This document shows positions 2,356 through 36,820 of a stretch of 58,666 nt of DNA, one piece after another. The stretch lies in IMG/VR virus record IMGVR_UViG_3300028383_000267, positions 1 through 58,666 of that record; one strand, given 5' to 3'. This DNA is from a virus. Its lineage: Duplodnaviria; Caudoviricetes. Each line of letters begins with the position of its first letter. Positions within the stretch are counted from its first letter, which is position 1. The notes below the pieces were generated by a model that saw only the letters and a list, made by a program, of their open reading frames with translations, did no database searches and had not been told where the DNA came from. The translations under genes were made by a program, and so were the position numbers.

Positions 2356-2356
2356 G

Positions 2357-4252: not shown

Positions 4253-4260
4253 GATAAATA
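4253..4260 (+). promoter_or_regulatory. Putative T4-like late promoter (GATAAATA)
   Basis: Intergenic TAAATA core about 25 nt before the ATG at 4285; the same motif precedes other structural genes. Confidence 0.6.
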
Positions 4261-4284
4261 CTCTTATAGAAGGGGTATGAAATA

Positions 4285-7870: not shown

Positions 7871-7899
7871 TTGACATTCGTCGGTTTTTCACTTATAAT
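7871..7899 (+). promoter_or_regulatory. Consensus sigma70 promoter heading the enzyme cluster
   Basis: TTGACA (7871-7876), 17-nt spacer, TATAAT (7894-7899), followed by the RBS AAGGAGG before 7921. Confidence 0.85.
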
Positions 7900-7920: not shown

Positions 7921-8280
7921 ATGGACGAACGACTAGAAAAAGCTCTTGATTTTTCGAACTACATGGTAACTCTAAATAATCAAAAAAGAATTTTGAAAGA
8001 GAAATTTAGAGAATCTGTAGTGCATTATCATAGAGGCGGTCAGTTTACAGTAACAAAACAGCTTGTTACATTTGTAAATCTACTGGTAGACAAAGATAAC
8101 ACAGAAAACGTTGTATTAATTGACGACAATGAAACACCTATCATGGTAGAAGATTTGGAAAATTTTCTAGATGATATATTAGATATCTACTTTTCCGCAG
8201 CAAATGTGTTTCACACAGAATATCAAAAGCTAACGAAAAACAGATCCACAGAAAAATTAGTAGAGTATGAACAAGACTAA
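7921..8280 (+). CDS. Hypothetical phage protein, first gene of the cluster
   Basis: 119 aa ORF with a strong RBS, overlapping the next gene. Confidence 0.7.
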   Translation: MDERLEKALDFSNYMVTLNNQKRILKEKFRESVVHYHRGGQFTVTKQLVTFVNLLVDKDNTENVVLIDDNETPIMVEDLENFLDDILDIYFSAANVFHTEYQKLTKNRSTEKLVEYEQD

Positions 8281-9157
8281 AGGTATTTTGGTTTTTGCAA
8301 GAAACAATTCTCAAATAGATTACATAAAACAGGCATATTTTCTTGCAAAAAGAGCTCGAAGCTATCTCGATCTCCCTACAACAGTAGTAACTGACAGTGA
8401 GGATTTTCTAAAAAATCAATACCCTGACTGGGACTCTGTGTTCGACGGAATTGTTTCTATTGTGTGGGAAGAGGATAAGCTAGTTGGCAGCGCAGTTCTT
8501 TCACCTAGAGAAAACAAAAATCTAAAAAAGTTTCATGATGGTTCGCTAGTAAGCAAGCAGCTTGCCTGGAAAAACGAAGCTCGGGTGCTCGCATATGAAG
8601 CCTCTCCTTACGACGAAACGCTGGTTCTTGATACAGATGTTATAGTTTGCAACGACGAGTGGTTAAAATGTTTTGAACAACAGCATGATCTTCTCCTTTA
8701 TAAACACTCAACAGAGCTGATAGACATAGATAGGGGCGATGATCTCGAAAGAATTTCTGATACATCAGTGGATTTTTATTGGGCAACCTGTGTTTTCTTT
8801 AGGAAAACAGAAACAAATAAAATTTTCTTTGGTTTAGTGCAGCATATACAGGAAAATTGGTCACACTATAACAATATCTTTCAGATAAATTCTCCTTATT
8901 ACCGCAATGATTACGCTTTTTCGATTGCCGTACACATAATGAACGGCTATCAAACAGGTGATTTTGCAAAACCTATGCCAGGAACGTTGTATTTTGCTTC
9001 AGATAGATCCGTTTTGTGGCAGATTCAAGGAGAATCACTGTTTGTATTGCTAGAAAAACCACTTTATGATGGAGAATACACGCCTTTGAAAGTAAAAAAT
9101 TGCAATTTACACTTTATGAACAAGTTTAGTTTGAACAGGTGTATCGATGAGCTCTAG
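8267..9157 (+). CDS. Putative GT-A fold glycosyltransferase (GT8-like)
   Basis: SPYDETLVLDTD DxD motif; YRND acceptor-side motif; C-terminal HFMNK. Confidence 0.65.
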   Translation: MNKTKGILVFARNNSQIDYIKQAYFLAKRARSYLDLPTTVVTDSEDFLKNQYPDWDSVFDGIVSIVWEEDKLVGSAVLSPRENKNLKKFHDGSLVSKQLAWKNEARVLAYEASPYDETLVLDTDVIVCNDEWLKCFEQQHDLLLYKHSTELIDIDRGDDLERISDTSVDFYWATCVFFRKTETNKIFFGLVQHIQENWSHYNNIFQINSPYYRNDYAFSIAVHIMNGYQTGDFAKPMPGTLYFASDRSVLWQIQGESLFVLLEKPLYDGEYTPLKVKNCNLHFMNKFSLNRCIDEL

Positions 9158-9977
9158 AGGATTTGTAATTTATGCAGAAGGATCTGCGTATGTCAGGCAG
9201 GCATATCTTGCAGCACTCAGTTTACAAGCTTCCGGCAATGAATATCCTGTCAGTTTAATCACCTCAGATTCCGTTTCTCGAAAATTTCGTCGAGTCTTTG
9301 ATAAAATTATCAAAATTCCGTGGTACACAAAGTCAGAACACAGTCTTTGTACAGATAATCGCTGGAAAATCTATCATGCAACACCCTATGAACACAATAT
9401 TGTTCTAGATTCAGATGTTTTAGTACTAGAAAATCTTGATTATTTTTGGGAATTTGTAACTAATTACGATTTGTATTTTCCAACCACAGTTTTCACGTAT
9501 AGAAAAGAACAAATTGTAGACAATTTTTATAGAAAAGCATTTTCTGCAAATGATTTGCCTAATTTTTATAACTGTGTACACTATTTTAAAAAATCAGATT
9601 TTGCAAAAGAGTTCTATGCTTGGGTAGAGCTAGTAAATAATAACTGGGAACTGTTTTATGGTAAATTCTGCTCAGAACACTATCCAAAGCAGCCTTCGAT
9701 GGATATAACAACTGCAATAGTTTCAAAAATACTTGATTGTGATAGCGAAATTTCTAATGCGTCAACGGAATTACCTCAGATTGTGCATATGAAATCGCAA
9801 GTCCAGTATTGGAAAAATTCTACAACACGGTGGCAGGACAGAGTAGGAGTGTATTTGAGCGAGGACCTACAGCTAAAGATAGGAAATCATAGACAGGATA
9901 GTATCTTTCACTATACAGAAAACGATTTTTGCACAGATACAATGATAGGAAAGTTTGAAAAATGTCTGAATCTTTGA
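9147..9977 (+). CDS. Putative GT-A fold glycosyltransferase (paralog of 8267)
   Basis: TPYEHNIVLDSD DxD motif; VHMK motif. Confidence 0.65.
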   Translation: MSSRGFVIYAEGSAYVRQAYLAALSLQASGNEYPVSLITSDSVSRKFRRVFDKIIKIPWYTKSEHSLCTDNRWKIYHATPYEHNIVLDSDVLVLENLDYFWEFVTNYDLYFPTTVFTYRKEQIVDNFYRKAFSANDLPNFYNCVHYFKKSDFAKEFYAWVELVNNNWELFYGKFCSEHYPKQPSMDITTAIVSKILDCDSEISNASTELPQIVHMKSQVQYWKNSTTRWQDRVGVYLSEDLQLKIGNHRQDSIFHYTENDFCTDTMIGKFEKCLNL

Positions 9978-10537
9978 TGTATGTAAATTTTGAAGAAGAA
10001 ACAGGAAAAATTCTAGGAATTAGCCCCAAACAGAACAGAACCAGCTCTATTCCTGTATTTTTATCGTCAGTTCAGCCTTTATTAGACGGTGTCGAGCCTA
10101 AAAGAAACTACAGAGTTGAATATAACGCAAAAACCAAAGAGCTAGAACTAAAACATCAGTTCATTTCTAGGTTTGATGGCTCGAATGTTAATGATTTTAT
10201 CTATGAAATTCCTGAAACCGGTGTAAAAGATACAGATATTATAATAGAACAGAATATTTCAGAGATGTGCTGGAAAATCAAAATAGGATCTAAGCTCAAA
10301 AAAAATCTTCGTACTAAAAAGATACGACTAAATCAAACTTTAAATTTTGCTGTTACTAGAAAGCACGATCCTAACATTCTCTACAAAACTCTTTCTGTAG
10401 ACTTTTCTTCTATTATGACAGATAACTATGCATTGCTGCCTTTTGACATGCAGTTTGAAAGATCAGACGCGGCTATCAGTGTTTTTACAGCTAGAACGTT
10501 TGATTCCTATCTTTTTACAAGAGTGGTTAATGAATAA
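9962..10537 (+). CDS. Hypothetical protein
   Basis: 191 aa ORF coupled to both neighbours; no motif recognised. Confidence 0.6.
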   Translation: MSESLMYVNFEEETGKILGISPKQNRTSSIPVFLSSVQPLLDGVEPKRNYRVEYNAKTKELELKHQFISRFDGSNVNDFIYEIPETGVKDTDIIIEQNISEMCWKIKIGSKLKKNLRTKKIRLNQTLNFAVTRKHDPNILYKTLSVDFSSIMTDNYALLPFDMQFERSDAAISVFTARTFDSYLFTRVVNE

Positions 10538-11444
10538 TAAAATAAGAATAGTAGAACAGGACATAATTTTTCTTTCCTATGACGAGCCAAACGCAGAAAA
10601 AAATTACGCAGACCTCTGTCAAAAGATTCCGTGGGCAAAAAGAGTTCATGGAGTAAAAGGCTCTGATGCCGCACACAAGGCGTGTGCTGATATTTCTGAA
10701 ACAGACTATTTTGTTACAGTTGACGGTGACAACCAGATAGATACAGAATTTCTAGTTCAAGAAATTGATCTGGACGAGCTAGGTTTAACTTCCGATCATG
10801 TTTTTTCATGGTGCGGAAAAGTAAATGTGAATAACTTAATGTACGGAAACGGCGGATTAAAACTTTGGAATAAAAAATTTGTTCAAAATATGCGCACTCA
10901 CGAAGCAGCATCGCAGAATGACACTAAATCTCTTGTAGAGTTTTGTTTTAATAATCTATATTACCAATTCGATGATAATTTTTCTATTTCTTACATTAAC
11001 AGTTCTCCTTTTCAGGCTTTTCGAGCAGGATTTAGAGAGGGAGTTAAAATGAGTCTTGATCAAGGACAAAAGCTTTCTGATATAAAAACAGCTTGGTCAA
11101 AAAATTATGAACGTCTTTTAATATGGTGCTCTGTAGGAGCAGACATCGAAAACGGATTATGGAGTATGTACGGTGCAAGAGAAGGCTGTTACCTTACAAA
11201 TTGTACTGATTGGGATTATACACAGGTAAGAGATTTTGAATATTTAACAGAACAGTGGACAGATTACTATTCAAAATCAGAAGATACCTTGAAAGCAGAA
11301 ATTGAAAGGTTGGGGTCAATATTAACACAAGAGTTAAAATTAGAAATAGGTTATCTGGATCCTCAAGCAAGCAATTTTTTCAAAAAAGTGTATTATAACT
11401 TTCCTAGAAGATTAAAAAATGTCAAACGAACACGAAATAGATAA
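10530..11444 (+). CDS. Putative glycosyltransferase (GT2/GT-A-like)
   Basis: DIIFLSYDEPNA...RVHGVKG...AHKACA...VTVDGD (DxD), YGNGGLKLW, AFRAGFREG. ATG at 10530 preferred because it overlaps the upstream gene end. Confidence 0.65.
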   Translation: MNNKIRIVEQDIIFLSYDEPNAEKNYADLCQKIPWAKRVHGVKGSDAAHKACADISETDYFVTVDGDNQIDTEFLVQEIDLDELGLTSDHVFSWCGKVNVNNLMYGNGGLKLWNKKFVQNMRTHEAASQNDTKSLVEFCFNNLYYQFDDNFSISYINSSPFQAFRAGFREGVKMSLDQGQKLSDIKTAWSKNYERLLIWCSVGADIENGLWSMYGAREGCYLTNCTDWDYTQVRDFEYLTEQWTDYYSKSEDTLKAEIERLGSILTQELKLEIGYLDPQASNFFKKVYYNFPRRLKNVKRTRNR

Positions 11445-12780
11445 ATTAAAAGCAAAGCGAGACATAATTAATAAAATAAGCCCAAGCTTTTGTTCTGCAA
11501 AGTGGCTGCAAACAACTCTATATCTTCAAAACGGATATAATCACTCCTGTCATCACCCTGCACCTCACAAAATACCTGTAGAAGAGGTGCTAGAAAACCC
11601 AGCAGCATTACATAATTCAAAATTTAAAAAAGAACAACGGCAAAAAATGTTGCAAGGTGAAAGACCGGCAGAATGTTCCTATTGCTGGAAAACAGAAGAT
11701 CTCAAAGAAGATCATTTTTCAGATAGACATTATAAAACTTCAGATAATTGGGCATGGCCTCGTTTAAATGAAGTTGCCGAATCAAATCCGCGGGACAATA
11801 TAAATCCTTCTTATCTCGAGGTTAGTTTTTCAAATGTCTGCAATTTCAAATGTTCTTATTGCTCGTCCGAAATAAGTTCTAAGTGGCTAGAAGAGATTAA
11901 ACAATACGGTGAATACGATACCAGCCAAGCAAACCATAACCTTGATTGGTTAAAAGACAGTGGAAGATTTCCCTATAAAAACAGAGAAAAGAATCCTTAT
12001 GTAGAAGCTTTTTGGCAATGGTTCCCAGACATTCTACCTGATCTTAAAGTCTTCAGAATTACAGGAGGCGAGCCGCTACTCAGCAAGGAAACATGGAAAG
12101 TCTTAGACTATGTAGAAAACAATGCTGATAAACCTATCGATATTGCAATTAACACTAATCTATGTGTAGATAATCTATTAATAGATAAATTAATTGAAAA
12201 GTTTGAAGATTTGAAATCTAAAGGGCACTCTTGCGAAGTATATACCAGTCTAGAAAGCACTAGCAAAAAAGCTGAATATAGTAGATATGGATTAGACTAC
12301 AATCAATGGTGCAAGAACGTAGAGAAAATTCTCGAGCAAAGCAGCTTGAATGTTGCTGTGATGACAACAATAAATCTTCTCAGCATTACAGATTTTGGAA
12401 ATTTTATAGATTTGATTATGGAAATGCGTAGAAAGTATAATACTTCGTCTGCAGAGAATAGACTGCCTTTGAGCATAAATCAGTTGCACTGGCCACCTTA
12501 TTTAAATATTTCAATATTACCTAAAAAAATAAAAAACAAAATTTACGATGATATAATAAATCATTGCGAAAAACTGTTAAAATATAACAATGACGGTAAA
12601 ATAGAAAGACTGTATCTTGAGGAATGGGATCAAATTCAAAGGCTGTGCAAATCAATGATGTCCTCAGAACACAAATCTAACGAGATCATAGACTTTCAAA
12701 AATACATACTAGAGTACGACAGAAGAAGAAACACAGACTTTCGAAAAACATTTCCGGAATTAGAGGAATTACTAGACTAA
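11419..12780 (+). CDS. Radical SAM protein with N-terminal Twitch/SPASM-like domain
   Basis: CNFKCSYC, TGGEPL, INTN; N-terminal FCSAKW...SCHHP...CSYCW. Confidence 0.9.
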   Translation: MSNEHEIDKLKAKRDIINKISPSFCSAKWLQTTLYLQNGYNHSCHHPAPHKIPVEEVLENPAALHNSKFKKEQRQKMLQGERPAECSYCWKTEDLKEDHFSDRHYKTSDNWAWPRLNEVAESNPRDNINPSYLEVSFSNVCNFKCSYCSSEISSKWLEEIKQYGEYDTSQANHNLDWLKDSGRFPYKNREKNPYVEAFWQWFPDILPDLKVFRITGGEPLLSKETWKVLDYVENNADKPIDIAINTNLCVDNLLIDKLIEKFEDLKSKGHSCEVYTSLESTSKKAEYSRYGLDYNQWCKNVEKILEQSSLNVAVMTTINLLSITDFGNFIDLIMEMRRKYNTSSAENRLPLSINQLHWPPYLNISILPKKIKNKIYDDIINHCEKLLKYNNDGKIERLYLEEWDQIQRLCKSMMSSEHKSNEIIDFQKYILEYDRRRNTDFRKTFPELEELLD

Positions 12781-12781
12781 T

Positions 12782-14299
12782 ATGCCTAAAAAGCAGGATG
12801 AATCACTTGTACAATATAGAGATAGGATAATAGATAAAATTAGCAGCAGTTTTTGTGCTGCAAAATGGTATAATGCTACTATTTGGCTAGGCAGCGGAAC
12901 TACTGCTAGCTGTCATCATCCCCCTGCTCATCAAATTCCTTTAGAAGAAGTAAAGGAAAATTTCAAGGCGATTCACAATACTAAGCATAAGAAGCTCATG
13001 CGGAAAATGATGTTAAATGGTGAACGTCCAAAGGAATGTGAATATTGCTGGAAAATGGAGGACATTTCTAAGGATACTGTAAGTGACAGAGTTTTTAAAA
13101 CAATTATCTATCAAGACGACGAAATAAATGAGCTTGCTAAAGTAGACTATCGTGAAGATGTTGATTTAAAAACTTTGGAAATATCATTTGACAGAGTATG
13201 TAATCTTGCTTGCTCATATTGTAATGCTAGTTTTTCTACTACCTGGGCAAGAGATATAAAAAAGAACGGTGCATACCAAAATCTAGTGTCAGACGGCGCG
13301 GGAGCATTTCAACAGGACGGATCATGGACAGAGCCTTATACATCAGACGACGAGAATCCTTATATTCAAGCATTCTGGGAATGGTGGAATGACAGTTTAT
13401 CAGAAAGTCTTGATGAATTACGCATAACAGGCGGTGAACCTTTAATGAGCGGAAATACCTGGAAATTATTTGACTGGTTTTCCAATCAAAATTCTGATAT
13501 GAGATTTGCGATCAATAGTAACCTAATAGCAAAGCCTGATTTTATTGATAGTCTAATCGAAAAAACAAAAAACATTAATCGTTTTGAAATCTATACTTCA
13601 TGTGAAGCTGTAGGAAAGCATGCAGAATATATCAGAGACGGTCTAGATTATGGGTTGTGGAAAAACAACATGGTTAAAATATTAGACGAAGGAAATCTTC
13701 GCGGTATGCATGTCATGATGACAATAAACAGTTTGTGTCTTTTCAGTATTACTGACTTTTTTGATGAAATGTACGAAATCAAAGAATGGTTTCATGAAAA
13801 GACCGGAAAAAAGCAACCTACAATGAGTGTGAATTTGGTACGCTTTCCTAGTTTCCAGTCTCCTCTTGCACTTCCGGATCATATCAAAATCTATTTGAAG
13901 ACACAGTTAGAAGACTGGTATTCAAAAGCAAAAGAACAGCCGCTTTGGCATGAATTTGAAAAATCAAGCATTGAAAGATTGATCGATTATCTTGACGTAG
14001 TTGATGCTCCCCATAGAAGAACGTCTAACAAGATTACTCTCTGGAGAGATTTCAAAAGTTTTTACAAGCAATACGACAAGAGACGTGGAAAAAGCATCTA
14101 TGTTTTCCCAAAGATCTTAACAGACTGGTTCGACCAGTTGCCTGATACTGAATTATCAGAATTTGCGCAACTACGCAACGGTAATTCAACAAACCAGTAT
14201 CAAGCTGATGAAGAATTACAGCGCCTCGCAGAAGAGGAAGGCTGGATACTCGATCCAGATCCAAAAAATATTGATGAACCTCTCGGAAAATATGACTAA
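12782..14299 (+). CDS. Radical SAM protein with N-terminal Twitch/SPASM-like domain
   Basis: CNLACSYC, TGGEPL; N-terminal FCAAKW...SCHHP...CEYCW. Confidence 0.9.
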   Translation: MPKKQDESLVQYRDRIIDKISSSFCAAKWYNATIWLGSGTTASCHHPPAHQIPLEEVKENFKAIHNTKHKKLMRKMMLNGERPKECEYCWKMEDISKDTVSDRVFKTIIYQDDEINELAKVDYREDVDLKTLEISFDRVCNLACSYCNASFSTTWARDIKKNGAYQNLVSDGAGAFQQDGSWTEPYTSDDENPYIQAFWEWWNDSLSESLDELRITGGEPLMSGNTWKLFDWFSNQNSDMRFAINSNLIAKPDFIDSLIEKTKNINRFEIYTSCEAVGKHAEYIRDGLDYGLWKNNMVKILDEGNLRGMHVMMTINSLCLFSITDFFDEMYEIKEWFHEKTGKKQPTMSVNLVRFPSFQSPLALPDHIKIYLKTQLEDWYSKAKEQPLWHEFEKSSIERLIDYLDVVDAPHRRTSNKITLWRDFKSFYKQYDKRRGKSIYVFPKILTDWFDQLPDTELSEFAQLRNGNSTNQYQADEELQRLAEEEGWILDPDPKNIDEPLGKYD

Positions 14300-15605
14300 A
14301 AAAGTAAGCGAGTACTTCTGCGTTGCTCCTTGGACTCACACTTTTGTTTCTCCTCAGGGAGAAAGACGACTTTGCTGTGCTAGTAGAGAAGAACCCAGTT
14401 TTCAAAAACAGTATATTGATGCCGGTGATGACAACGATAATGATTTTGTCTCGCAAACTTTAGACGAGCACTGGAACAGTAATTATATGAAAGATATTCG
14501 TCGTAGAATGTTAAACGGCGAGCGTTTATCAACATGTGAAGTATGTAATGGGCAGATTTTAAATCTTCATACATACAAAGATTACTTTAATAAAACTCTC
14601 TTTCCAAACAAAATGGATGAGATATTAGAAAATACAGATGAGGATGGCTATACAACTCTAAAACCTATTAGTTACGATTATCGTATTTCTAATCTATGCA
14701 ATTTTAAATGCAGAATGTGCGGGGAGCAGTTATCTAGTGCTTGGGAAACTGAAAAAAATAAACATTACAAACTAGATTATACCACAAATAAATGGATGGA
14801 ACCTTCTACACGTAAGAAAATATCAAAATTCCAGGAAGAGGTGCTAGAAGAAGAATTGCAACGGGCAGTAGATGAAGGCAGAATTGAAGAAATTTACTGG
14901 GTAGGCGGTGAACCTCTTATGTGGGAACGTCATTGGACTGTGATGAATCAACTGGTAGAGACTGGCAATTCAAAAGATGTGGTGATAAGATATAACACAA
15001 ATCTTAGCAGAATAACTTATAAAAATTACAATCTGTATGACATGTTACCTTATTTTAAAAGAATAAATCTTTGTGCAAGCATAGACGGAGTTGGCGAAGT
15101 AGGTGAGTATATCAGAACTGGACTAGATTGGAAATCATGGTTTGAAAACTTCAAAAAAGGGATGTTTTTGATAGATAAATTCGGTGATGATGCTCTGGTA
15201 TTTGATGTTACCTTGACTACTCCTGGTTTTTTTGATTTAAAAAATCTATTCGATACAGTAACAGAACTAGATGTCAAGAGTTATCTTAAAATTACTTTTG
15301 CTTTTGATCCTTCTGTTGTGATGAGCCCGATGTGTTTGCCGAGAAAGATTTTAGATGACAAAATATATGAACTTCTAGAATATATGGAGCCTAGACAAAC
15401 ACGGAAGAACAAGGTATATATAGACACCTTGCAAGATATGTTGAAAAGACCTACTTTTGAGGAACAGTGGCCCGAAAAAGTACGTCAAGGCCTAAAAAGA
15501 GGAAAGCATAATATAGAATTTCTAGAGAGCATACGACAGCAAAAGACTACTTTTAGAAATGTTTTAAATAAGGATGCAAAAAAATGGTGGGACGCAATTG
15601 AGTAA
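14292..15605 (+). CDS. Radical SAM protein with N-terminal Twitch/SPASM-like domain
   Basis: CNFKCRMC, VGGEPL, YNTN; N-terminal CVAPW..H...LCC...CEVC. ATG at 14292 overlaps the previous gene end. Confidence 0.9.
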   Translation: MTKKVSEYFCVAPWTHTFVSPQGERRLCCASREEPSFQKQYIDAGDDNDNDFVSQTLDEHWNSNYMKDIRRRMLNGERLSTCEVCNGQILNLHTYKDYFNKTLFPNKMDEILENTDEDGYTTLKPISYDYRISNLCNFKCRMCGEQLSSAWETEKNKHYKLDYTTNKWMEPSTRKKISKFQEEVLEEELQRAVDEGRIEEIYWVGGEPLMWERHWTVMNQLVETGNSKDVVIRYNTNLSRITYKNYNLYDMLPYFKRINLCASIDGVGEVGEYIRTGLDWKSWFENFKKGMFLIDKFGDDALVFDVTLTTPGFFDLKNLFDTVTELDVKSYLKITFAFDPSVVMSPMCLPRKILDDKIYELLEYMEPRQTRKNKVYIDTLQDMLKRPTFEEQWPEKVRQGLKRGKHNIEFLESIRQQKTTFRNVLNKDAKKWWDAIE

Positions 15606-16785
15606 AACATTTTGTCCACTTCCTTGGACACATCTAGCCACTCATCCTCATGGGAGTGTGACGTTGTGTTGCGAAAGCGATCATTCTAACAGAGCATCTG
15701 AATCGAGAGATTTTCCTAAGCAATATAAAACGCTTCATTCCGAACAATTCGATTTTGATTCTATTTTTAATAGTGAATACTTTAATCAGGTAAGACAACA
15801 AATGTTGAACAACGAAATACCTGACGCCTGTTTTAAATGTTTTTACTATGAATCTATAGGAAAAGAAAGCAAACGTCAGCGAGAAAGCAAACGTCTGGAT
15901 TTCGGAATAGAAAACGCTAGTGAAATTACAAATCTAGACGGTTCTTTAAAATCTCTCGAGTTTGAGTTTATAGAGTTAAGGCTAGGTAATTATTGTAATC
16001 TAGGATGTAGAACCTGCAATCCTTCTAGCTCTACTACACTGAAAAAAGATTGGAAAAAAGTTTTTGGAGAGAAAGATTTAATAGATCAAAAGCTGTTTGA
16101 TTGGCCCGACAATGAAGATTTTTGGGAAAGTTTGTCTCAACACGTTGGCAATCTACAATACATATACATAAACGGCGGCGAACCTTTATTGATAGACAAG
16201 CATAAGTTTTTTCTAGAAAAACTAGTAAGGAACAATCATGCTCGAAACATTCATTTAGTCTATAGCACAAATGGCACAGTCGTTAACAACAAATTTATAG
16301 ATGTATGGAAGCATTTTAAGTCTGTTGATTTAATGATATCTGTAGATGATATAGAAGAAAGAAATACCTATATCAGATATCCATCAGATTGGAAAAAGAT
16401 ATTAAAGTTTTTGGATTGGATAGAAGAATTGTCTCAATCATTACCTATTACATTTAAAATACTGCAAACAGTGTCTGCAATGAATGTTTACTATTTAGGA
16501 GAAGTCGCGGATTATTTCGATAATAAAAACATACCAGTAAGCAGAAATTATGTACATCAACCTAAATATTATAGACCAGATGTATTGCCACAGCCAATCA
16601 AAAACAAAATACTAGAAATACACAAAGACTATGATTTTTATACAGAATTAAAACAAATATTAGGGTCTGAAAATAACGATTTTGATAATTTCATTAAAGT
16701 AACAAAAGAATTCGATGCAGTAAGGAAGCAGAGTTTTCATGATACATTCCCACAATTAGCGAAATTAATTTATGAGCACCAATAA
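15574..16785 (+). CDS. Radical SAM protein with N-terminal Twitch/SPASM-like domain
   Basis: CNLGCRTC, NGGEPL, STNG; N-terminal CPLPW..H...LCC...CFKC. Start may be the TTG at 15598. Confidence 0.9.
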   Translation: MQKNGGTQLSKTFCPLPWTHLATHPHGSVTLCCESDHSNRASESRDFPKQYKTLHSEQFDFDSIFNSEYFNQVRQQMLNNEIPDACFKCFYYESIGKESKRQRESKRLDFGIENASEITNLDGSLKSLEFEFIELRLGNYCNLGCRTCNPSSSTTLKKDWKKVFGEKDLIDQKLFDWPDNEDFWESLSQHVGNLQYIYINGGEPLLIDKHKFFLEKLVRNNHARNIHLVYSTNGTVVNNKFIDVWKHFKSVDLMISVDDIEERNTYIRYPSDWKKILKFLDWIEELSQSLPITFKILQTVSAMNVYYLGEVADYFDNKNIPVSRNYVHQPKYYRPDVLPQPIKNKILEIHKDYDFYTELKQILGSENNDFDNFIKVTKEFDAVRKQSFHDTFPQLAKLIYEHQ

Positions 16786-17968
16786 AGACACAAAATGTAT
16801 TTTACCGTGGATACACACGCACACATGGCCTAACGGTGCTGTATATCCTTGTTGTCTAACACCCATGGAGTATACAATGGGTGATTTAAATCAGGAAAAT
16901 CTAAAAGAAGTCTGGAATAACAAACAATACAAAAAACTTCGTGCAGAGATGATTTCAGGAAAAGAGCCTGAAAGTTGTAAACGCTGCTTCGAGCAAGAAT
17001 CAGTAGGCAAAAACAGTTTTAGAGAAGACGTGAATGAAAAATTTAGACATTTGCATTATCTATTTGACAAAACAAAACCAAATGGTTCTCTAGATTATTT
17101 TAAATTGTATTACTGGGACTTTAGATTTTCTAATATTTGCAATATGAGGTGTAGGAGTTGCGGTCCGCAGTTAAGCACAGGCTGGTATGAAGATACTAAA
17201 AAACTGTGGGGAGGTCTTCCTCAAGACATTCCAGATTCTGAACCTAAATTTGATATGTGGAAAGAAATTGAGCCGTTTTTTCCTGATGTCGAATCTATTT
17301 ATTTTGCAGGTGGAGAACCTCTTATAATGGAAGAGCACTACAAAATACTTGAAAAATTAGATGAATTAGAAAAATATGATACACACATAAGTTATAATAC
17401 AAATTTTAGTAGATTAACATACAAAAAAATAAACGCAGTCGATGTTTGGTCTAAATTCAAAAATGTAGAAATAGGTGCTAGCATAGACGGGTTTGGAAAA
17501 AAGGCCGAATATATAAGAAAAGGCACAGACTGGAACAAAATAGAAGCTAATAGAAAAGAGCTAAAAAGAAAAGCGCCAAATGTTGACTTCTGGATAAATT
17601 TTACTCTAAGTGTGTATAATTCATATCACGTTATAGAGTTTTATAATTGGGCAGTTGACTCTGGTTTTATAAAACCAGATAAATTCCATATTAATTTAGT
17701 GCAATTTCCGGAGCACTTAAGATTACAGATACTGCCAACTCATATTAAAAAAGACTTGACTCGAGAATACAAAAAATTAGCTGAGGTCACTAGGAAGAGA
17801 AATATAGATCATCTAGCAGATCAATTTGATAGTATTACGAATTTTATGTGGCAAGAAGATCGAACTGATTTACAAGAAAATTTCAAAAAGTATACTCTAG
17901 CAGTGGATAAAATTAGAGAAGAAAATTTTGAAACAGTTTTTCCTGAATTGGAACAATTATTAAGATGA
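16772..17968 (+). CDS. Radical SAM protein with N-terminal Twitch/SPASM-like domain
   Basis: CNMRCRSC, AGGEPL; N-terminal CILPW..H...YPCC...CKRC. Confidence 0.9.
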   Translation: MSTNKDTKCILPWIHTHTWPNGAVYPCCLTPMEYTMGDLNQENLKEVWNNKQYKKLRAEMISGKEPESCKRCFEQESVGKNSFREDVNEKFRHLHYLFDKTKPNGSLDYFKLYYWDFRFSNICNMRCRSCGPQLSTGWYEDTKKLWGGLPQDIPDSEPKFDMWKEIEPFFPDVESIYFAGGEPLIMEEHYKILEKLDELEKYDTHISYNTNFSRLTYKKINAVDVWSKFKNVEIGASIDGFGKKAEYIRKGTDWNKIEANRKELKRKAPNVDFWINFTLSVYNSYHVIEFYNWAVDSGFIKPDKFHINLVQFPEHLRLQILPTHIKKDLTREYKKLAEVTRKRNIDHLADQFDSITNFMWQEDRTDLQENFKKYTLAVDKIREENFETVFPELEQLLR

Positions 17969-18690
17969 AAACAATATTATGTGCAGGATGCAGCTGGACC
18001 TACGGGCATGGTTTACAAGACTATCAAACTTATCCAGCAAAAATTCAGGATCACTTAGATGATTGTAAAGTTATTAATGCAGGCTTAGGAGGGCGAGATA
18101 ATCAATATTCTACTTATGTAGTATCTAGAATGATTGCAGAAATGCAAATAGATTTAGTATTGTTCCAGATCACTACATTTGACAGATTAACACTAGGTAA
18201 TGATGGATACAAAAACTTTATAGAAGACAGAGTTTTCGACAAAAAACAAAAATCAATATATAATATCAAAGAAAAATATACTAGGCTAGGTTCGTTAGAT
18301 CATCAGGAGCACTTGACACTAACAGCTGGAGAGTATCTAAACTCAAAAAAGTCAAAAATCATCAAATATCTTATGGAAAAATCTGTTTATTCTAATTATA
18401 CTATAGATATTACTATAACTAATCTGTATAATCTAAAAATGCACTTAGAATATTTGAGAATCCCGATGGTTCTTTTTAGCTGGGTTCCATTACCTCAAGG
18501 TGTTTTTGATACTACTTACGGCAATAACTTAACGTCTCGAACCTACATAGATCAACCGGTTTTAAAATATCTCGAAACAAAAACCCAAAATTATTTTATT
18601 GATAATGGCTATCATGTAAGCGAAAAAGCCAATGCGTTAATTGCAAAGAATTTTTTAATACCCCACTGTATAAATATGGGAGTATTATGA
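17965..18690 (+). CDS. SGNH/GDSL-like hydrolase or acyltransferase
   Basis: Block-I-like GCSWTYG, NAGLGG, C-terminal DNGYH. Confidence 0.55.
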   Translation: MKTILCAGCSWTYGHGLQDYQTYPAKIQDHLDDCKVINAGLGGRDNQYSTYVVSRMIAEMQIDLVLFQITTFDRLTLGNDGYKNFIEDRVFDKKQKSIYNIKEKYTRLGSLDHQEHLTLTAGEYLNSKKSKIIKYLMEKSVYSNYTIDITITNLYNLKMHLEYLRIPMVLFSWVPLPQGVFDTTYGNNLTSRTYIDQPVLKYLETKTQNYFIDNGYHVSEKANALIAKNFLIPHCINMGVL

Positions 18691-19811
18691 GTAACTTCTG
18701 TATTTTGCCTTGGATACACCTAGAAGCAGATGCCAACGGATCGGCTAAGCCCTGTTGTCTATATGAAGAAACTGTTGGCAATTTGAATTATCAATCGATT
18801 GAAGAAGTATGGAACTCAAAAGAATTAATTAATCTCCGTGAGAAATTTCATAACAATGAACGTCCTTCGTTGTGCAAAAAGTGCTGGGATGTAGAAGACT
18901 CGGGCGGTAGATCTAAAAGGATCAACGAATTAGAACGATTTGATCATCTAATGTATCGAAGCAAGGAGACAGGTCGGCCTCCTGCTTATTTAGATTTAAA
19001 ATTAGGGCGAGTATGCAATATTAAGTGCCGCACTTGTAATAGTTTTAGTTCTTCAGCATGGACACAGGACGAAAAAAAGCTTTATGGAAAAGCATTTAAC
19101 GATAACGAACTTGGTTATTGGATATCTGATGATATGCCAGTCTGGAAAGAACTGTCGGAGATACTGCCTTATATTGAATTTATAGATTTTTCAGGCGGTG
19201 AGCCTCTACTAATAAAAAAACATTTTGAACTTTTACAAAAAGCCGTTGACATTGGCTGCGCTGATAAAATAAGCCTACATTATAATACAAACGGCACTAT
19301 TAAACCCACAGAAAAAATGTTTGAAATTTGGTCGAAATTCAAATATGTAGAAATAATGCTCAGTGCAGACGGAATAAAAGAAAGATTTGAATACCTAAGA
19401 CATCCTGCAAAATGGAATACCTTTACTAATACTTTTGAGATCTTTCAAAGAAACTCGCATATAGTTCATTTAACAATATGTCACTCTGTGAGTGCTTTAA
19501 ATGTTTTTTATTTGGATGAATTTATAGATTGGTGCGAAAGAAATTCTATAGTAGATCATAATCTATACCTTAACATAATTCATGAACCTGCATATTATTG
19601 TATTGCTAATTTGCCAACAGGGTTAAAAGAAAAAATTACAGAACATTTAAGAAACAAAAGATGTCAAGAAATCGTTAATTTTATGAATTCTCAAAACAGG
19701 AATCATTTTAAAGAGCTTCTTTCTAAAACAGAAAAATTAGACAATATTCGAAAAGAAACCTTTGCAGATGTTTTTCCAGAATTTTGGGAAGAAGCTGAGA
19801 TTTATAGATGA
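18687..19811 (+). CDS. Radical SAM protein with N-terminal Twitch/SPASM-like domain
   Basis: CNIKCRTC, SGGEPL, YNTNG; N-terminal CILPW..H...KPCC...CKKC. Confidence 0.9.
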   Translation: MSNFCILPWIHLEADANGSAKPCCLYEETVGNLNYQSIEEVWNSKELINLREKFHNNERPSLCKKCWDVEDSGGRSKRINELERFDHLMYRSKETGRPPAYLDLKLGRVCNIKCRTCNSFSSSAWTQDEKKLYGKAFNDNELGYWISDDMPVWKELSEILPYIEFIDFSGGEPLLIKKHFELLQKAVDIGCADKISLHYNTNGTIKPTEKMFEIWSKFKYVEIMLSADGIKERFEYLRHPAKWNTFTNTFEIFQRNSHIVHLTICHSVSALNVFYLDEFIDWCERNSIVDHNLYLNIIHEPAYYCIANLPTGLKEKITEHLRNKRCQEIVNFMNSQNRNHFKELLSKTEKLDNIRKETFADVFPEFWEEAEIYR

Positions 19812-21010
19812 ATTTATGGTTTGAAAACATAAAAGGAATCAACTCTCCAATAAAAAACTGTAGTGATCATGTTTCTATCATAGAAAGAGAAAGCGAAATA
19901 ATTTGGCATTTAAAAAGTTTAGAAACGCATTATAGCTTAAAACAAATAGACAAAGATAAGATTTCAAAAAATGATAGAAATTTTTTTCCTGTAGAATTCT
20001 GGAATCTTGATAGTCTTGATACTATCTTTGATACTTTAAGTGAATCTACAAAGCGCCTTTTAACAGAGAAAAAATTAACTTTACTTGTTTATTTTCCCTT
20101 TGAAGGATTTTCTTTAGATACATGTAATTGGTTAGACAAATTAGAATATTCTCTTAAGGTCAATAGACTAGAAAATTGTAATAAAATCTTGATTTTTGGA
20201 AATTTAGAAATTGAACAACTGGTATACGAAAGAAATAATTTTTGGAACAAAGTCTTTGGAATTGATTTTTGGCAATGGTTTTATGCCGAAGAATATAAAG
20301 AAAGGTTAGATAAAAATTTAGAAAAAGATAGTAAAAAAACAAAGTCTAAAAAGGAAAAAGACTTTTTATCACTGAATGGTGCAACAAGAGAACATAGATT
20401 AATTTTTTGTTCAGAACTAGAAAGGAAGAACCTAAATAAATTTGGACACGTAAGCATGGTAGGTAGGAATTTAAATCCAACAGATTTTGATGACGCCGAC
20501 CAAATTTTACAACCTTATAAAAAGAAAAATACTTATTTTAAAGCATATTGCAAAAATTGGAAGCCTTTGGTACTAGATAAGCAATTGTTTCAATTAGAGA
20601 AAGACGACAGAGGTATAAATAAATCTTTATATAAGGATTCTTTTTTCAGTGTTGTCACAGAAACCTGTGTTTCAGAAGGCTTATTTTTGACTGAAAAAAC
20701 ATTCAAACCAATAGTAAACTTGCATCCGTTTATGATTTTAGGTCAACCGGGTATCTTAAAATATCTTAAATCTCAAGGCTATAAAACCTTTCCCGAATTA
20801 TTTGACGAATCCTACGACAACGAAACCGACCTAGTAAAAAGAATAGATAAAATACAAGACAATATCGAAATGTTCTCGCAATTAGAGTATAATACCAAAC
20901 TAGAATTATTACAAAGTGTTCAAGATAAACTAAAACACAACAAAAAGATTTTTCTAGATGAAGAAAATCAAAATACTAAAAAAATTAAAAAAGTATTTAA
21001 AAAATTATAG
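19808..21010 (+). CDS. Putative glycosyltransferase-like protein (VTET..TEKT.KPI family)
   Basis: FLSLN...REHR; FSVVTET..FLTEKTFKPI..HPF..LG....L..L...GYKTF...DESYD, reminiscent of the GT10/GT-B nucleotide-binding half. Confidence 0.45.
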   Translation: MNLWFENIKGINSPIKNCSDHVSIIERESEIIWHLKSLETHYSLKQIDKDKISKNDRNFFPVEFWNLDSLDTIFDTLSESTKRLLTEKKLTLLVYFPFEGFSLDTCNWLDKLEYSLKVNRLENCNKILIFGNLEIEQLVYERNNFWNKVFGIDFWQWFYAEEYKERLDKNLEKDSKKTKSKKEKDFLSLNGATREHRLIFCSELERKNLNKFGHVSMVGRNLNPTDFDDADQILQPYKKKNTYFKAYCKNWKPLVLDKQLFQLEKDDRGINKSLYKDSFFSVVTETCVSEGLFLTEKTFKPIVNLHPFMILGQPGILKYLKSQGYKTFPELFDESYDNETDLVKRIDKIQDNIEMFSQLEYNTKLELLQSVQDKLKHNKKIFLDEENQNTKKIKKVFKKL

Positions 21011-21014
21011 TTTC

Positions 21015-21956
21015 ATGCTGATTTACGACCAAGGATTTACTCCACAAAACATTATTGGACAACACGACAGAGTCATAAAAAACATAATAATGTATCAGTT
21101 ATCCGAGGACGATGTTTTTATTAACACTACATGGTTAGAGGTCGATGATAACCTAAAACATATTGCAGATAAAAACAAGAATGCAATTTGTTATAGCGGT
21201 CCTGATTGGGAAAATACCATATGTAGGAAAAAACAGAACGAGTTTATTGATGATAATTTTAAGGATGTTTACAGAGTAGGAAATACCCGAGGAGATTATT
21301 ATTTTTCTTTTTGGTTAGATTTTGTTTTTAATCATCTTCCTGCCTATCAAAAGTTTGATCCTTATAAATTTAAAAATATAAAGACTTTCATGTGCCTAAA
21401 CAGAAAACCTCATGAACACAGGGTAGAATTAATTAATCAAATTAACAGTTTGAAACGGCATGGAATTGTAAGCCTTGGTGGAGAAACCCCTATACTGTTA
21501 GATATTGATGTAAAAAACCAAGAAGGAGATAATTCTGTTGGAGGGAAAGTGGGCATTACGAATGATATAACCGGTTTAGGACACAAAGACAATTGGAATG
21601 CCCATTTTCTTAATGTTGTAACAGAAACCACAATACACAGTGATGTTTTTATAAGTGAAAAAACATTAAAACCAATAATTGGCAAAAGGCCTTTTATTAT
21701 TTTAGGTGACTTCAAATTATATTCTATCTTACACTCGTGGGGTATAGACACTTTTGACGATTTATTTGGAAAGGGATACCTGAAAAGATGGCATACAGAT
21801 AGAATAGATTGGATCCAAAATGTTTTAGAATCTCTTACTAAAGAGAAAAAACTTGATAGTTTGTTAAATTCTCTCAAGCCTAGACTAGAAAAAAATTACA
21901 CTGCCTTGTGCCAGGCATACGTAGAAAACAAAGAAAAAATAGAGAATTTATTATGA
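21015..21956 (+). CDS. Putative glycosyltransferase-like protein (same family as 19808)
   Basis: FMCLNRKPHEHR; NVVTET...SEKTLKPIIGKRPF...GIDTFDD. ATG at 21015 follows the upstream stop. Confidence 0.45.
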   Translation: MLIYDQGFTPQNIIGQHDRVIKNIIMYQLSEDDVFINTTWLEVDDNLKHIADKNKNAICYSGPDWENTICRKKQNEFIDDNFKDVYRVGNTRGDYYFSFWLDFVFNHLPAYQKFDPYKFKNIKTFMCLNRKPHEHRVELINQINSLKRHGIVSLGGETPILLDIDVKNQEGDNSVGGKVGITNDITGLGHKDNWNAHFLNVVTETTIHSDVFISEKTLKPIIGKRPFIILGDFKLYSILHSWGIDTFDDLFGKGYLKRWHTDRIDWIQNVLESLTKEKKLDSLLNSLKPRLEKNYTALCQAYVENKEKIENLL

Positions 21957-22810
21957 AAATACTTACCGGAGGATGTAGTTTTACAGCGCATTTAGAAGAA
22001 CAATTTTTAGCTTGGCCGTATCACTTAGAAAATAAAGGCTATCAAATCGTGAATACAGCAGAAATGGCGTCAGGAAATGAAATAATACTAGAACGCATAA
22101 TTTCACAAATACAAAAAGCTAATCCTGATGCAATTATTGTAATGTGGTCAAACCCTTTTAGAGTAGATTTATTTTTTAACCAAGAATCAAAAGATTTTGA
22201 CCTAATTCATTCTGCTATGAAAGGACATACATCTTATAGCAATTTTGTCTTAAACGGAAAAATTCAGAATCACAAAAATTCTAACTGGATAAGAACGGGC
22301 GGCGGATATGGAATCTGGAAGTTTGGGTGTAAACCTTTAGATAAAATTTTTAAAAACTATCTTGCAGATTATTACAATAATGAATACCAATTTATAAAAA
22401 ATGTTAGGAATATATTAACCTTACAAACAGTGTGTGCGTCCTTAGGAGTTAAACTTATTAACACTTGCTGGCAAAACATATGGGACGACTTATACGATTT
22501 AGATAACCACGAATTAAAAACTTCTAATTGGATAACCAAAGAAAGTGTAAAGAAATTAAAAAATAGAAATGCTGTTTATACACCATTGATAGATAAATTT
22601 CCTAATGCCAAACATTGGTATGATTTAATAGATTGGTCTACATGGTTATTTTACGAAAAAGAAGGTGTCAAAAGAGGAGGTATAGGAGAATTTGCAATTA
22701 TAGAAAACAATGATGAATTACAGAACTCTCATCCTTCATGGACCTCACAAAAATTATGGACAGATTTTTTAGATAGAAATTTATTCAATAGATTTAAGTT
22801 TAGAGGTTAG
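21953..22810 (+). CDS. SGNH/GDSL-like protein
   Basis: MKILTGGCSFT, SGN, C-terminal SHPS; ATGA overlap at 21953. Confidence 0.5.
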   Translation: MKILTGGCSFTAHLEEQFLAWPYHLENKGYQIVNTAEMASGNEIILERIISQIQKANPDAIIVMWSNPFRVDLFFNQESKDFDLIHSAMKGHTSYSNFVLNGKIQNHKNSNWIRTGGGYGIWKFGCKPLDKIFKNYLADYYNNEYQFIKNVRNILTLQTVCASLGVKLINTCWQNIWDDLYDLDNHELKTSNWITKESVKKLKNRNAVYTPLIDKFPNAKHWYDLIDWSTWLFYEKEGVKRGGIGEFAIIENNDELQNSHPSWTSQKLWTDFLDRNLFNRFKFRG

Positions 22811-25821: not shown

Positions 25822-25871
25822 ATTTTTAATCTCTTGCTGATTATTTGTTTACTGTCAAATGGGAATTTCAT
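25818..25871 (-). CDS. 17-aa mini-ORF (MKFPFDSKQIISKRLKI), possibly a collapsed gene
   Basis: Exactly fills the gap between two genes, with ATGA overlaps at both ends. Confidence 0.4.
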   Translation of the reverse strand: MKFPFDSKQIISKRLKI

Positions 25872-34492: not shown

Positions 34493-35303
34493 TGAATTAA
34501 AAAGAGGTGGATTTCTTACCGTAGACTTTTATCTCACTAAGTCCTGTAATAAGTCCTGCTACTACTGCACTGCATGGACGAAGGAGATGCGGAATCTTGA
34601 TGTTGATATAGAGTTTTTGTCGAAGACTCTTGAATATCTCAGTCCTTACAAAACTCGTATTTGTCTCCTAGGAGGAGAACCTGCACTAGTTAGAAATTTT
34701 GAAGAGGTGATCAACGAGATTAAAAAACACGAAAACCTAGTACCTCAGGTAATGTCAAATTCTTTGATAAGGAATAGGTATCCTTGGGTGCTAGACGATC
34801 CTGAAATTTTTTACATGGAACATCTTGTTCTAGATTTTCATGAAGACAGGATAGAAAAATTAGGTAAGCATGACTTTTTACCTGAAAACGATCTTAACAA
34901 TTTTAATCTAATAATTGAAACTCCTAATTATTTCAAATATAGAGAAAATTTTGATTTGTCAGAAATTGACCATAAAAATACCGAATTCAAAGAATTTAAT
35001 GGAAGGTCCCCTACTTTCAACCGTGCCGAACAGGCACCGGAAATTGATAGACGCATTTGTGCCGCGTTTCCTTTGGTACCTGTAATAGATTTTGAATTGC
35101 AAAAGATAAGACATTGTAGCCGGAAAGCTATTAATGGCTCACGCACTTTCGATGTAACTCGTGAAAATATAGACAAAATGATGAACTTTGATCTATTTCA
35201 GTTTGAATCTTACTGCAAAACCTGTACAGAAATAATACCAAAGAGACCAGACTGGCAAAGACAAATGATATTGGAAAAAATTACGCAGGACGAACTGCAA
35301 TGA
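34473..35303 (+). CDS. Radical SAM protein with C-terminal Cys cluster
   Basis: CNKSCYYC, LGGEP; C-terminal C...HC...CKTC. ATG at 34473 preferred. Confidence 0.85.
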   Translation: MAKFTLDELKRGGFLTVDFYLTKSCNKSCYYCTAWTKEMRNLDVDIEFLSKTLEYLSPYKTRICLLGGEPALVRNFEEVINEIKKHENLVPQVMSNSLIRNRYPWVLDDPEIFYMEHLVLDFHEDRIEKLGKHDFLPENDLNNFNLIIETPNYFKYRENFDLSEIDHKNTEFKEFNGRSPTFNRAEQAPEIDRRICAAFPLVPVIDFELQKIRHCSRKAINGSRTFDVTRENIDKMMNFDLFQFESYCKTCTEIIPKRPDWQRQMILEKITQDELQ

Positions 35304-36820
35304 ATATATTTTCTATTGCAGTAAACATTCATGATCACAACTGGTACGATGGCAAAACACATCGTCAAGAAGAAAGACATACTAAAGTAAAACACAATCT
35401 CAACCCAGACAATTCACATGATCCTGAACCTAGTAGAACTTTTTTTCGACAGCATTTTATTCCTAATTACAAAAAGCAAAAACAAAACGACGTATTTTGT
35501 TTCACAGTATCTAATCTTGGCCAAGAGTTTGTGCGTGATTTACTAGAAGCAACCATAGGCGAACTTGATTTTTTAGAATTCCGCCCTCAGAACCTCTGGG
35601 ACTATTATAGCACTGACTCATATTATTACATAGATCATCATCAATCTCATGCTGCTTATGCTTTTTTAACATCAGGGCATAAAGAGTCTGATATTCTAGC
35701 AATTGATGGCAGAGGATGGCAATTTAACTGTATGTTTGTCGATAGTGCTGGCAACATAATCGATCTTTCTAAAGAACTTAGTATAGGCGGATTGTGGAAT
35801 AGACTAGCACAAGACATAGGCCTGGGTTACCTGGGCGCTGGCAAAGTAATGGGTTTAGCAGGTTACGGCAAATGGGATGAAGATATTGCCGACATGATTG
35901 ATCTTTATCTAGAAAACCCTAATCATAAACTACCAAACGGTGCTTACGATTTATTAGCAAAAACTCCTAAGGAAAACACTGCGCGCACACTGCAGATCAA
36001 GACAGAACAGTTAATCAGAGAACATGTCTATCCATTAAAAACTTCAGATTGTCTTTGTGTTGCAGGAGGTGTGGCATACAACGGATATGTAAACGAGATG
36101 CTTACAGAGCATTACACTCATGTTTATGTTCCGCCTGCTGTAGGCGACGAAGGACAAGCAATAGGGGCATACATGCATGCAGACCATATGCTCAATAATA
36201 ACGTTCACAAGACGACCGTATATGCGGGCACAGACTGGGAAATAGACACTGCATTGTTTGAAGATTTTGAATGGCAAGAAAAAACATTTGACGAAATTTC
36301 AAATGAGGTTGCTGCTGAAATTGCAAATGGCTCAATAGTAGGATGGTTCCAAGGAAAGTCTGAATCAGGAAATAGAGCACTAGGAAACAGAAGCATACTG
36401 GCTGATCCACGAAATCGCAACATCAAAGACATAATTAATCATACGATTAAGAAGCGCGAGGACTTTAGGCCTTTTGCTCCTGCTGTTTTAGAAGATTATT
36501 ATCAAGATTATTTTTACACCAATCAGCCGTCACCGTACATGTCACGAATTGTGCCAGTGATCAGTAATGAAATTCCAGGAGTTACTCATGTAGACGGCAC
36601 TGCACGCATACAAACAGTAACTATGAAAAGCAACGAGCGTTTTTATAATTTAATCAATCAATTTTATAAACAAACTGGGATTCCGATGTTGCTGAATACC
36701 AGTTTCAATTGTCAAGAACCTATTGTAGAAACGCCCGAAGATTCTGTCACTACTTTCAAAAAATCTGATCTTGATATACTAGTCATTAATAATTTTATAT
36801 TGAGAAAACGTTATGATTGA
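35300..36820 (+). CDS. Carbamoyltransferase (NodU/CmcH/TobZ family)
   Basis: DHHQSHAA, AIDG.G, GKVMGLAGYG, AGGVAYN, GDEG, RALGNRSILADP, KRE.FRPFAP, HVDGTARIQTV, LLNTSFN. Confidence 0.95.
   Translation: MNIFSIAVNIHDHNWYDGKTHRQEERHTKVKHNLNPDNSHDPEPSRTFFRQHFIPNYKKQKQNDVFCFTVSNLGQEFVRDLLEATIGELDFLEFRPQNLWDYYSTDSYYYIDHHQSHAAYAFLTSGHKESDILAIDGRGWQFNCMFVDSAGNIIDLSKELSIGGLWNRLAQDIGLGYLGAGKVMGLAGYGKWDEDIADMIDLYLENPNHKLPNGAYDLLAKTPKENTARTLQIKTEQLIREHVYPLKTSDCLCVAGGVAYNGYVNEMLTEHYTHVYVPPAVGDEGQAIGAYMHADHMLNNNVHKTTVYAGTDWEIDTALFEDFEWQEKTFDEISNEVAAEIANGSIVGWFQGKSESGNRALGNRSILADPRNRNIKDIINHTIKKREDFRPFAPAVLEDYYQDYFYTNQPSPYMSRIVPVISNEIPGVTHVDGTARIQTVTMKSNERFYNLINQFYKQTGIPMLLNTSFNCQEPIVETPEDSVTTFKKSDLDILVINNFILRKRYD

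Follow-up and report, generated by a model that had tools for sequence, protein, structure and literature searches.

Six diverged N_Twi_rSAM radical SAM enzymes in a phage glycosyltransferase neighbourhood: a possible sugar-tailoring array

What does a phage do with six radical S-adenosylmethionine (SAM) enzymes encoded almost back to back, directly behind glycosyltransferase (GT) genes? The question is raised by the IMG/VR virus record IMGVR_UViG_3300028383_000267 (Duplodnaviria; Caudoviricetes), the whole of which (58,666 b; CheckV completeness 11%) was analysed here and is hereafter referred to as the window. Its open reading frame (ORF) list holds six such same-strand ORFs of 374-505 residues within 11419..19811, which we name R1 to R6 in their order. 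They belong to N_Twi_rSAM, a catalogued family without assigned function, and we favour, with moderate confidence, the view that they are soluble enzymes of a phage glycosylation pathway, where they would use radical chemistry to tailor sugars. A sugar substrate is our best guess because of the GT-A enzymes, SGNH-like proteins and O-carbamoyltransferase encoded around the array, a natural fusion of a GT2 domain to a radical SAM module, and the sub-modules of the cultured Ralstonia phage RsoM2USA. A sugar context had already been proposed when the locus was read from its sequence only, and with GT8-like, GT-A and carbamoyltransferase neighbours and the one GT2 fusion it is the best-supported reading.

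Each of the six proteins matches the NCBIfam profile NF033640 (N_Twi_rSAM, "twitch domain-containing radical SAM protein"; 398 positions, curated cut-off 170 bits) end to end, from profile positions 1-2 to 392-397, with scores of 308-424 bits (E 1e-92 to 9e-127), and nothing sets them apart at the family level. A six-frame search of the record returned the same six, and only these, above the cut-off. No other NCBIfam family came near its own cut-off for any of them; the best score in the equivalog test for MoaA (GTP 3',8-cyclase) was 40.5 bits against a cut-off of 284, so a housekeeping MoaA identity is discarded. The Pfam domain Radical_SAM (PF04055) was detected in all six and exceeded its gathering threshold in five (R2 scored 22.3 versus 29.5). 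In the six-way alignment (R1 numbering) the core residues C141-N142-x2-C145-x2-C148 and then G216-G217-E218-P219-L220 are invariant, so that the radical SAM signature (CxxxCxxC and GGE) is complete in every copy, at a pairwise identity of only 21-40%. With all scores above the family cut-off and the core motifs invariant, the description of the array as six paralogous radical SAM enzymes stands, far above what chance would give.

Ahead of the core, C25, W29, C44, C86 and C89 are also invariant. The four Cys, spaced C-x18-C-x40-CxxC, are the only conserved ones in the N-terminal domain, and the family profile pairs them one to one with four Cys of the twitch region of BtrN (2-deoxy-scyllo-inosamine dehydrogenase, PDB 4M7T), the founding twitch enzyme; the alignment is weak (domain E 0.008; whole-protein E 6e-4, 22 bits), and R5 aligns to this region through residues 5-74. 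We take the paired BtrN Cys to be the ligands of a fully ligated auxiliary cluster. Pfam recognizes a SPASM-type domain at the N terminus of four of the six, as a related half-domain; a full SPASM domain would have seven to eight Cys and lie at the C terminus, whereas these proteins have four conserved Cys at the N terminus. The auxiliary Cys domain is thus where the sequence-only reading had placed it, but that placement is not the oddity it was taken for, because NCBIfam already curates it as N_Twi_rSAM with thousands of members. The N-terminal twitch architecture was therefore known; what is new here is that the family splits into conserved orthogroups, together with the phage module in which these lie. 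Two motifs noted earlier hold in part: the shared Cys positions occur in all six, with the 'CC' pair in four ('SC' in R1 and R2), and the ending D..R...F...FP.L, ascribed to most, is exact in three (ORFs 1, 4 and 5), with FPEF in ORF 6 and variants in ORFs 2 and 3. Among relatives of at least 330 residues, 540 of 574 keep all seven Cys, and many of the departures from this look like artefacts of the ORF start or of the alignment.

The AlphaFold2 (AF2) model of R5 (predicted local distance difference test score, pLDDT, 92.9) was compared with solved structures. Only its core (residues ~110-360) aligns, to SuiB, BlsE, anSME, CteB, MoaA, SkfB and DesII; because all these matches are tied at Z 11-12, the modelled fold does not distinguish sugar enzymes from peptide enzymes. 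BtrN has a single auxiliary cluster and a carbohydrate-like substrate, and it resembles the six in its four Cys and their spacing; it differs in that its twitch domain follows the core, whereas theirs precedes it, and in the weakness of the whole-protein match. The enzymes anSME, SuiB and CteB are among the best core matches and share the SPASM-type Pfam assignment seen on four of the phage N termini, but their SPASM domain is C-terminal with two auxiliary clusters, and most of them also have a peptide-recognition domain, whereas the six have four auxiliary Cys, at the N terminus, and a recognition domain was not found in them. DesII and BlsE, which act on nucleotide-linked sugars and would suit the sugar context, reach Z 11.0 and 12.1, level with the peptide enzymes; they have no specific sequence relationship to the six and a different domain order.

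The presence of SuiB, anSME, CteB and SkfB among the top fold matches gives weight to another explanation, in which the paralogs are protein or peptide maturases, as most SPASM/twitch enzymes are, each modifying its own site in a phage protein (for example of the fibre or baseplate) by epimerisation, cross-linking or Ser/Cys oxidation as in anSME, while the GTs act separately. We consider it unlikely, in view of several features of the array. None of the six has a Pfam match to a PqqD-like recognition domain at E<=0.01. The full complement of four twitch Cys leaves no open iron site of the kind known from thioether-forming enzymes. Adjacent array genes abut or overlap by 4-32 nt, and therefore there is no space for a small ORF inside the array; the only other gene there is a 241-residue ORF that splits the fifth radical SAM gene from the sixth. 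The listed start of R3 (TTG 14163) would give a 137-nt overlap with R2, and ATG 14292 is the more probable start. A Cys- or Gly-rich small ORF was not found, and the small conserved proteins of the surrounding module, s5 and c9, look folded rather than precursor-like. The absence of an evident precursor peptide, remarked on before, is thus confirmed for this gap-free array, which leaves room for a distant or trans-encoded precursor of a peptide made by the ribosome and then modified post-translationally (RiPP). Co-translation, stated for the set in the sequence-only reading, is overstated, being inferred from the gene overlaps only.

Loci around relatives were fetched with an R5-centred query and ±10 kb flanks: 62 on genome contigs and 80 viral, the latter being the best 80 of at least 675 matches. 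Counting the window (n = 143 sources), one copy occurs in 23 sources, two in 14, three in 15, four in 20, five in 37, six in 28, seven in 4 and eight in 2, that is, at least four copies in 91 of 143. A FastTree phylogeny of 561 sequences (13 more were excluded as too short) resolves two superclades, R1/R1'/R2 and R3/R4/R5/R6. Well-populated clades correspond to R2 (75 sequences in 71 loci, support 1.0), R3 (65 in 65, support 1.0), R6 (76 in 72, support 0.86) and R1' (69 in 68, support 0.87), and R4 forms a small one (11 in 11, support 0.996); the orthogroups are essentially single-copy per locus. Members of R2, R3, R5 and R6 stand together in 47 of the 80 viral loci, a count biased by the R5-centred query, and missing members may sit beyond the flanks. 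By these orthogroups the six are old paralogs, probably of diverged function, rather than recent duplicates. Extra conserved non-ligand Cys occur in the R2, R3 and R6 orthogroups only (in R2, in 92% of the clade), which hints at different chemistry in different orthogroups. Some R5 orthologs (L072, L079, L089, L090, L092 and L120) have an additional N-terminal domain of ~150 residues, for which we found neither a Pfam match nor a homolog among the other module proteins.

Clustering of all ORFs of the fetched loci revealed a gene module with the recurrent order fibre - st6 - s5 - GT8-like x2 - c9 - c1 - R1' - (GT10-like?) - R2 - R5 - R6 - R3 - c7 - (DUF6071) - carbamoyltransferase, of which the window has a variant, R1 R2 R3 R4 R5 DUF6071-like R6 (Table 1). 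The GT genes reported directly upstream of the array are indeed there, as two GT8-like genes and one gene for a GT-A fold (c1). The GT8-like family profile matches glycogenin (E 1.3e-5) over its N-terminal 105 positions only, a partial match; D124 is invariant, in keeping with GT8 enzymes of the glycogenin/LgtC type (DxD), and the second gene also matches Pfam Mannosyl_trans3 (E 3e-5). The c1 model (pLDDT 84) has as its best Foldseek match A64R, the capsid-glycosylating GT of chlorovirus PBCV-1 (2p6w, E 2.7e-4); SunS and TarS/TarP come next. In c1, D62 and D64 do not vary, and a paralog of it lies at 27814-28506. As a comparison, PBCV-1 A64R offers a soluble, virus-encoded pathway, but PBCV-1 is a eukaryotic virus and the Foldseek margin of c1 over other GT-A enzymes is small. 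To our knowledge, radical SAM enzymes are not part of PBCV-1 glycosylation. The carbamoyltransferase also matches NodU (E 1e-38), under the NodU cut-off, and the window further encodes a nucleotide diphosphate (NDP)-sugar dehydrogenase, a PseC/LegC-type aminotransferase and a NeuD-type acetyltransferase. Searched against PDB sequences, the c1, c7 and GT10-like family profiles gave no meaningful match.

Table 1. Features of the array and its surrounding module in the window, with the number of viral loci (of 80) in which each module family is present
Feature	Position	Strand	Description and basis	Viral loci
Fibre genes (three)	352-5763	+	Collar domain, tail-fibre PHROGs	33
st6 (two paralogs)	5792-6805, 6869-7867	+	Baseplate or fibre structural genes	43
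Promoter-like site	7871..7899	+	Sigma-70 type, TTGACA-17-TATAAT, 12/12 matches	
s5	7921..8280	+	Conserved 119-aa protein opening the enzyme block; family clustering	44
GT8-like (two genes)	8267-9157, 9147-9977	+	Glycogenin-type, GT-A; profile versus PDB	53
c1	10530..11444	+	GT-A-fold protein directly upstream of R1; AF2 and Foldseek	65
R1	11419..12780	+	N_Twi_rSAM, 453 aa; NF033640 337 bits; all seven Cys	
R2	12782..14299	+	N_Twi_rSAM, 505 aa; NF033640 308 bits	
R3	14292..15605	+	N_Twi_rSAM; NF033640 326 bits; Pfam SPASM at N terminus	
R4	15574..16785	+	N_Twi_rSAM, 403 aa; NF033640 359 bits; rare orthogroup	
R5	16772..17968	+	N_Twi_rSAM, 398 aa; NF033640 424 bits; nearest family consensus	
DUF6071/SGNH(GDSL)-like ORF	17965..18690	+	Inside array, 241 aa; Atlas	
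R6	18687..19811	+	N_Twi_rSAM, 374 aa; NF033640 366 bits	
GT10-like family (cluster 3; three copies)	19808-21010, 20958-21956, 23156-24364	+, +, -	Virus-specific, possibly GT10-like; clusters	53
DUF6071-cluster ORF (cluster 10)	21908-22810	+	Cluster 10	30
c7				42
Carbamoyltransferase	35300..36820	+	NodU/CmcH type; Pfam Carbam_trans_C E 1e-65	46

The ORF inside the array had no Pfam, NCBIfam or PHROG match; in the Atlas it lies close to DUF6071 clusters (features 0.95, TM 0.74), one of which meets the naming bar. Its link to the DUF6071-cluster ORF downstream runs through DUF6071-type Atlas matches only, the direct BLASTP comparison being not significant (E 3.3). For the three GT10-like copies the closest named Atlas clusters are GT10 (0.79-0.80), a lead only. 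We also considered the N-terminal extensions of long family members and the ORF at 9962-10537 as c9-like; a c9 hidden Markov model gave no match to them at E<=0.01. Farther along, an ORF of 195 residues at 25868-26455 (-) may be a truncated or remnant aminotransferase: its match to the DegT aminotransferase profile (360 positions) is confined to positions 163-244.

Among the module proteins encoded at 5.7-37 kb no transmembrane-like segment was predicted except in one borderline case, and no flippase, polymerase, priming transferase or Wzx/Wzy-type multi-pass membrane protein was seen in the module, which is thus predicted to be entirely soluble. This bears on a different role for sugar tailoring, with a target outside the virion: the O-chain of host lipopolysaccharide, remodelled against superinfection (as has been proposed for the GT-rich host-recognition clusters of pelagimyophages), or a free aminoglycoside-like small molecule. 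The combination of twitch radical SAM enzymes, a DegT aminotransferase, GTs and a carbamoyltransferase does resemble aminoglycoside pathways, but a cyclitol synthase was not found; nor was any membrane protein, flippase, polymerase, transporter or polyprenyl-phosphate GT seen in the module, and in many loci the module strictly adjoins baseplate-fibre genes. A non-virion target therefore seems to us quite unlikely, although the promoter-like site in front of s5 suggests expression apart from the late fibre genes and so speaks for it.

The 53 nt that separate st6 from s5 contain this site. In the related loci, sites matching at least 10 of 12 positions precede 22 of 45 s5 genes versus 92 of 1409 other genes, and their offset is often fixed, so the enzyme block may, going by these sites, be an early or middle transcription unit of its own. 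The structural nature of the genes upstream of it is suggested by the Pseudomonas jumbo phage PA5oct, whose st6 homolog EST35_0123 is flagged ESI-MS/MS (electrospray ionization tandem mass spectrometry) in its record; two genes away from that homolog a T4 gp10-like baseplate protein is encoded, which the fibre N termini match. PA5oct has no N_Twi_rSAM member. The link between the array and tail proteins rests on gene order. In at least 33 of the 80 viral loci the module comes after fibre/baseplate genes, which counts in favour of maturases acting on such proteins.

A megablast search of the array against cultured phages gave no match, and it is at the protein level that RsoM2USA is a relative. 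It has two N_Twi_rSAM members above the cut-off, in two separate places, and all genes of its modules are annotated as hypothetical. At 216-223 kb the order is st6-s5-GT8-GT8-x-c1-R1-c1; R1 of the window is 45% identical to gp349 and s5 is 35% identical to gp354. At 123-129 kb (L146), far from this fibre-linked R1 module, a second mini-module reads DUF6071-R2-DUF6071-DUF6071-carbamoyltransferase, comprising the carbamoyltransferase gp199, the DUF6071-like gp200, gp201 and gp203 and the R2-type radical SAM protein gp202. By gene content and order, RsoM2USA carries a minimal version of the module. Its second radical SAM gene, among DUF6071 and carbamoyltransferase genes and far from any fibre gene, argues against the maturase reading. 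Phage KVP40 (L145, 135-144 kb) encodes three full-length sub-threshold relatives (114-131 bits), two of which are adjacent and adjoin a QueC-like gene and a PF04095-annotated gene.

The family is large: when 1.84 billion cluster representatives were searched with a profile, 7012 clusters (50% identity) matched at E<=1e-30, and a word-indexed search returned 6543 relatives at E<=1e-5. No member above the cut-off was found in 14 model organisms, and a literature search returned no publication on N_Twi_rSAM function. Natural tandem fusions of 2-3 N_Twi_rSAM modules per polypeptide (800-1200 aa; P0121, P0127, P0136 and others) hint at joint action but show nothing for the six studied here, so that the complex proposed in the sequence-only reading is at most a possibility. 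Among 15 long forms examined, one (P0242) fuses a GT2 domain to N_Twi_rSAM, and GT2, GDSL, carbamoyltransferase or DegT neighbours were present in four of nine bacterial loci examined. In 7 viral and 6 bacterial loci, 13 in all, the arrays are accompanied by a B12-binding radical SAM gene (cluster 13; for example L006, 18953-20557). One Elusimicrobia metagenome-assembled genome (L016, L023, L027-L043) has family members on at least 15 contigs, many of them in tandem and with long N-terminal arrays of tetratricopeptide repeats (TPRs).

Several of these observations weigh against a sugar-tailoring role. The assignment to sugars rests on neighbourhood and the one fusion. TPR or Sel1 repeats are fused in six of the 15 long forms, as TPRs are in the Elusimicrobia genome, and such repeats suggest protein partners no less than sugars; these fusions keep a protein-directed role alive and count in favour of maturases. 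Many bacterial arrays are surrounded by housekeeping genes and lack a carbohydrate gene close by. Of 18 members of the GT10-like family none matches PF00852 at E<=1, and the Pfam scan assigns them to no GT family. With the promoter-like site in between, the fibre link may be mere adjacency. The tied fold matches and the query bias of the co-occurrence counts belong on the same side.

Could the GTs and radical SAM enzymes instead decorate the bases of phage DNA and so evade restriction? Phage GTs often glycosylate DNA, and some thymidine hypermodification uses radical SAM enzymes; the window, moreover, encodes a GTP cyclohydrolase I and a QueE-like radical SAM protein. These 7-deazaguanine genes are, however, 35 kb away on the opposite strand, the genes beside the array showed neither a base-modifying kinase nor a DpdA-like transglycosylase or a hydroxymethylase, and GT8 and NodU-type enzymes are not DNA-modifying families that we know of. 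We regard DNA hypermodification as highly improbable.

The window holds three further radical SAM genes (29726-30484, 34389-35303 and 54589-55404), making nine in 58.7 kb; the last is the QueE-like one, near GTP cyclohydrolase I (57171-57632), and this pair suggests a 7-deazaguanine pathway. At 38658-42998 (+) two Asp/Arg beta-hydroxylase-like genes, a fatty-acid desaturase-like gene and a TauD-like dioxygenase gene place oxygen-dependent enzymes in the same island as oxygen-sensitive radical SAM genes. Nitroreductase-family and NADPH-dependent FMN-reductase-family genes (33761-34492 and 45607-46206) could, speculatively, supply electron donors for radical SAM enzymes. At 48819-51254 (-) a MoxR-type AAA ATPase, 52.6% identical to that of PA5oct, is paired with a DUF2201 metallopeptidase/VWA protein.

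The phage is of the large, T4-like kind: one record closely related to the window, 165.6 kb long and rated complete, has seven family members and a T4-type gp23. In T4-like pelagimyophages a host recognition cluster combines tail fibres, GT8, UDP-glucose dehydrogenase and radical SAM cassettes in one variable block (PMC7029224); that article touches on the cassettes only briefly, and they may be of the N_Twi_rSAM family. Near-identical DNA is present in one salt-lake metagenome, possibly the source of the record, and, with word shares of 0.26-0.56, in metagenomes that two other studies took from lake water and aquatic sites; three metatranscriptome runs contained only 0.07-0.10 of the sampled words.

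Taken as sugar-tailoring enzymes, the six would work as follows. Each has a partial TIM-barrel radical SAM core behind its N-terminal twitch domain, whose four Cys should hold one fully ligated auxiliary [4Fe-4S] cluster. A 5'-deoxyadenosyl radical would abstract one particular sugar C-H per enzyme, with oxidation, epimerisation or deoxygenation of the sugar unit as the outcome, and the twitch cluster would provide an electron route, as in BtrN. Together the paralogs might tailor a phage-made glycan or glycoconjugate stepwise. The acceptor would be cytoplasmic, because membrane machinery was not seen in the module, and virion proteins are candidates because the array follows the baseplate-fibre genes; the acceptors may thus be the baseplate-fibre proteins encoded just upstream. 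A bolder form of the sugar-tailoring reading, which we put forward only tentatively and think improbable as a whole, is a self-contained viral cytoplasmic glycosylation line in which five to six diverged twitch radical SAM enzymes each make one site-specific radical edit, for instance an epimerisation or oxidation, to a glycan built by phage GTs on baseplate-fibre proteins, some edits using an orthogroup-specific Cys as hydrogen donor. If true, it would mean a carbamoylated, acylated coat of unusual sugars on the host-recognition organ of T4-like aquatic phages, the first function for N_Twi_rSAM and the first radical-SAM-dependent virion glycosylation.

N_Twi_rSAM is common in big aquatic phages, and the multi-enzyme set recurs in many uncultured ones. 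Five to six different radical SAM enzymes beside glycosyltransferases are a rich target for new radical chemistry on carbohydrates or proteins, and the orthogroup map and the minimal version of the module in a cultured phage provide concrete experimental starting points. The array is relevant, too, to the question of which products the large 'host recognition' islands make in T4-like phages of seas and lakes.

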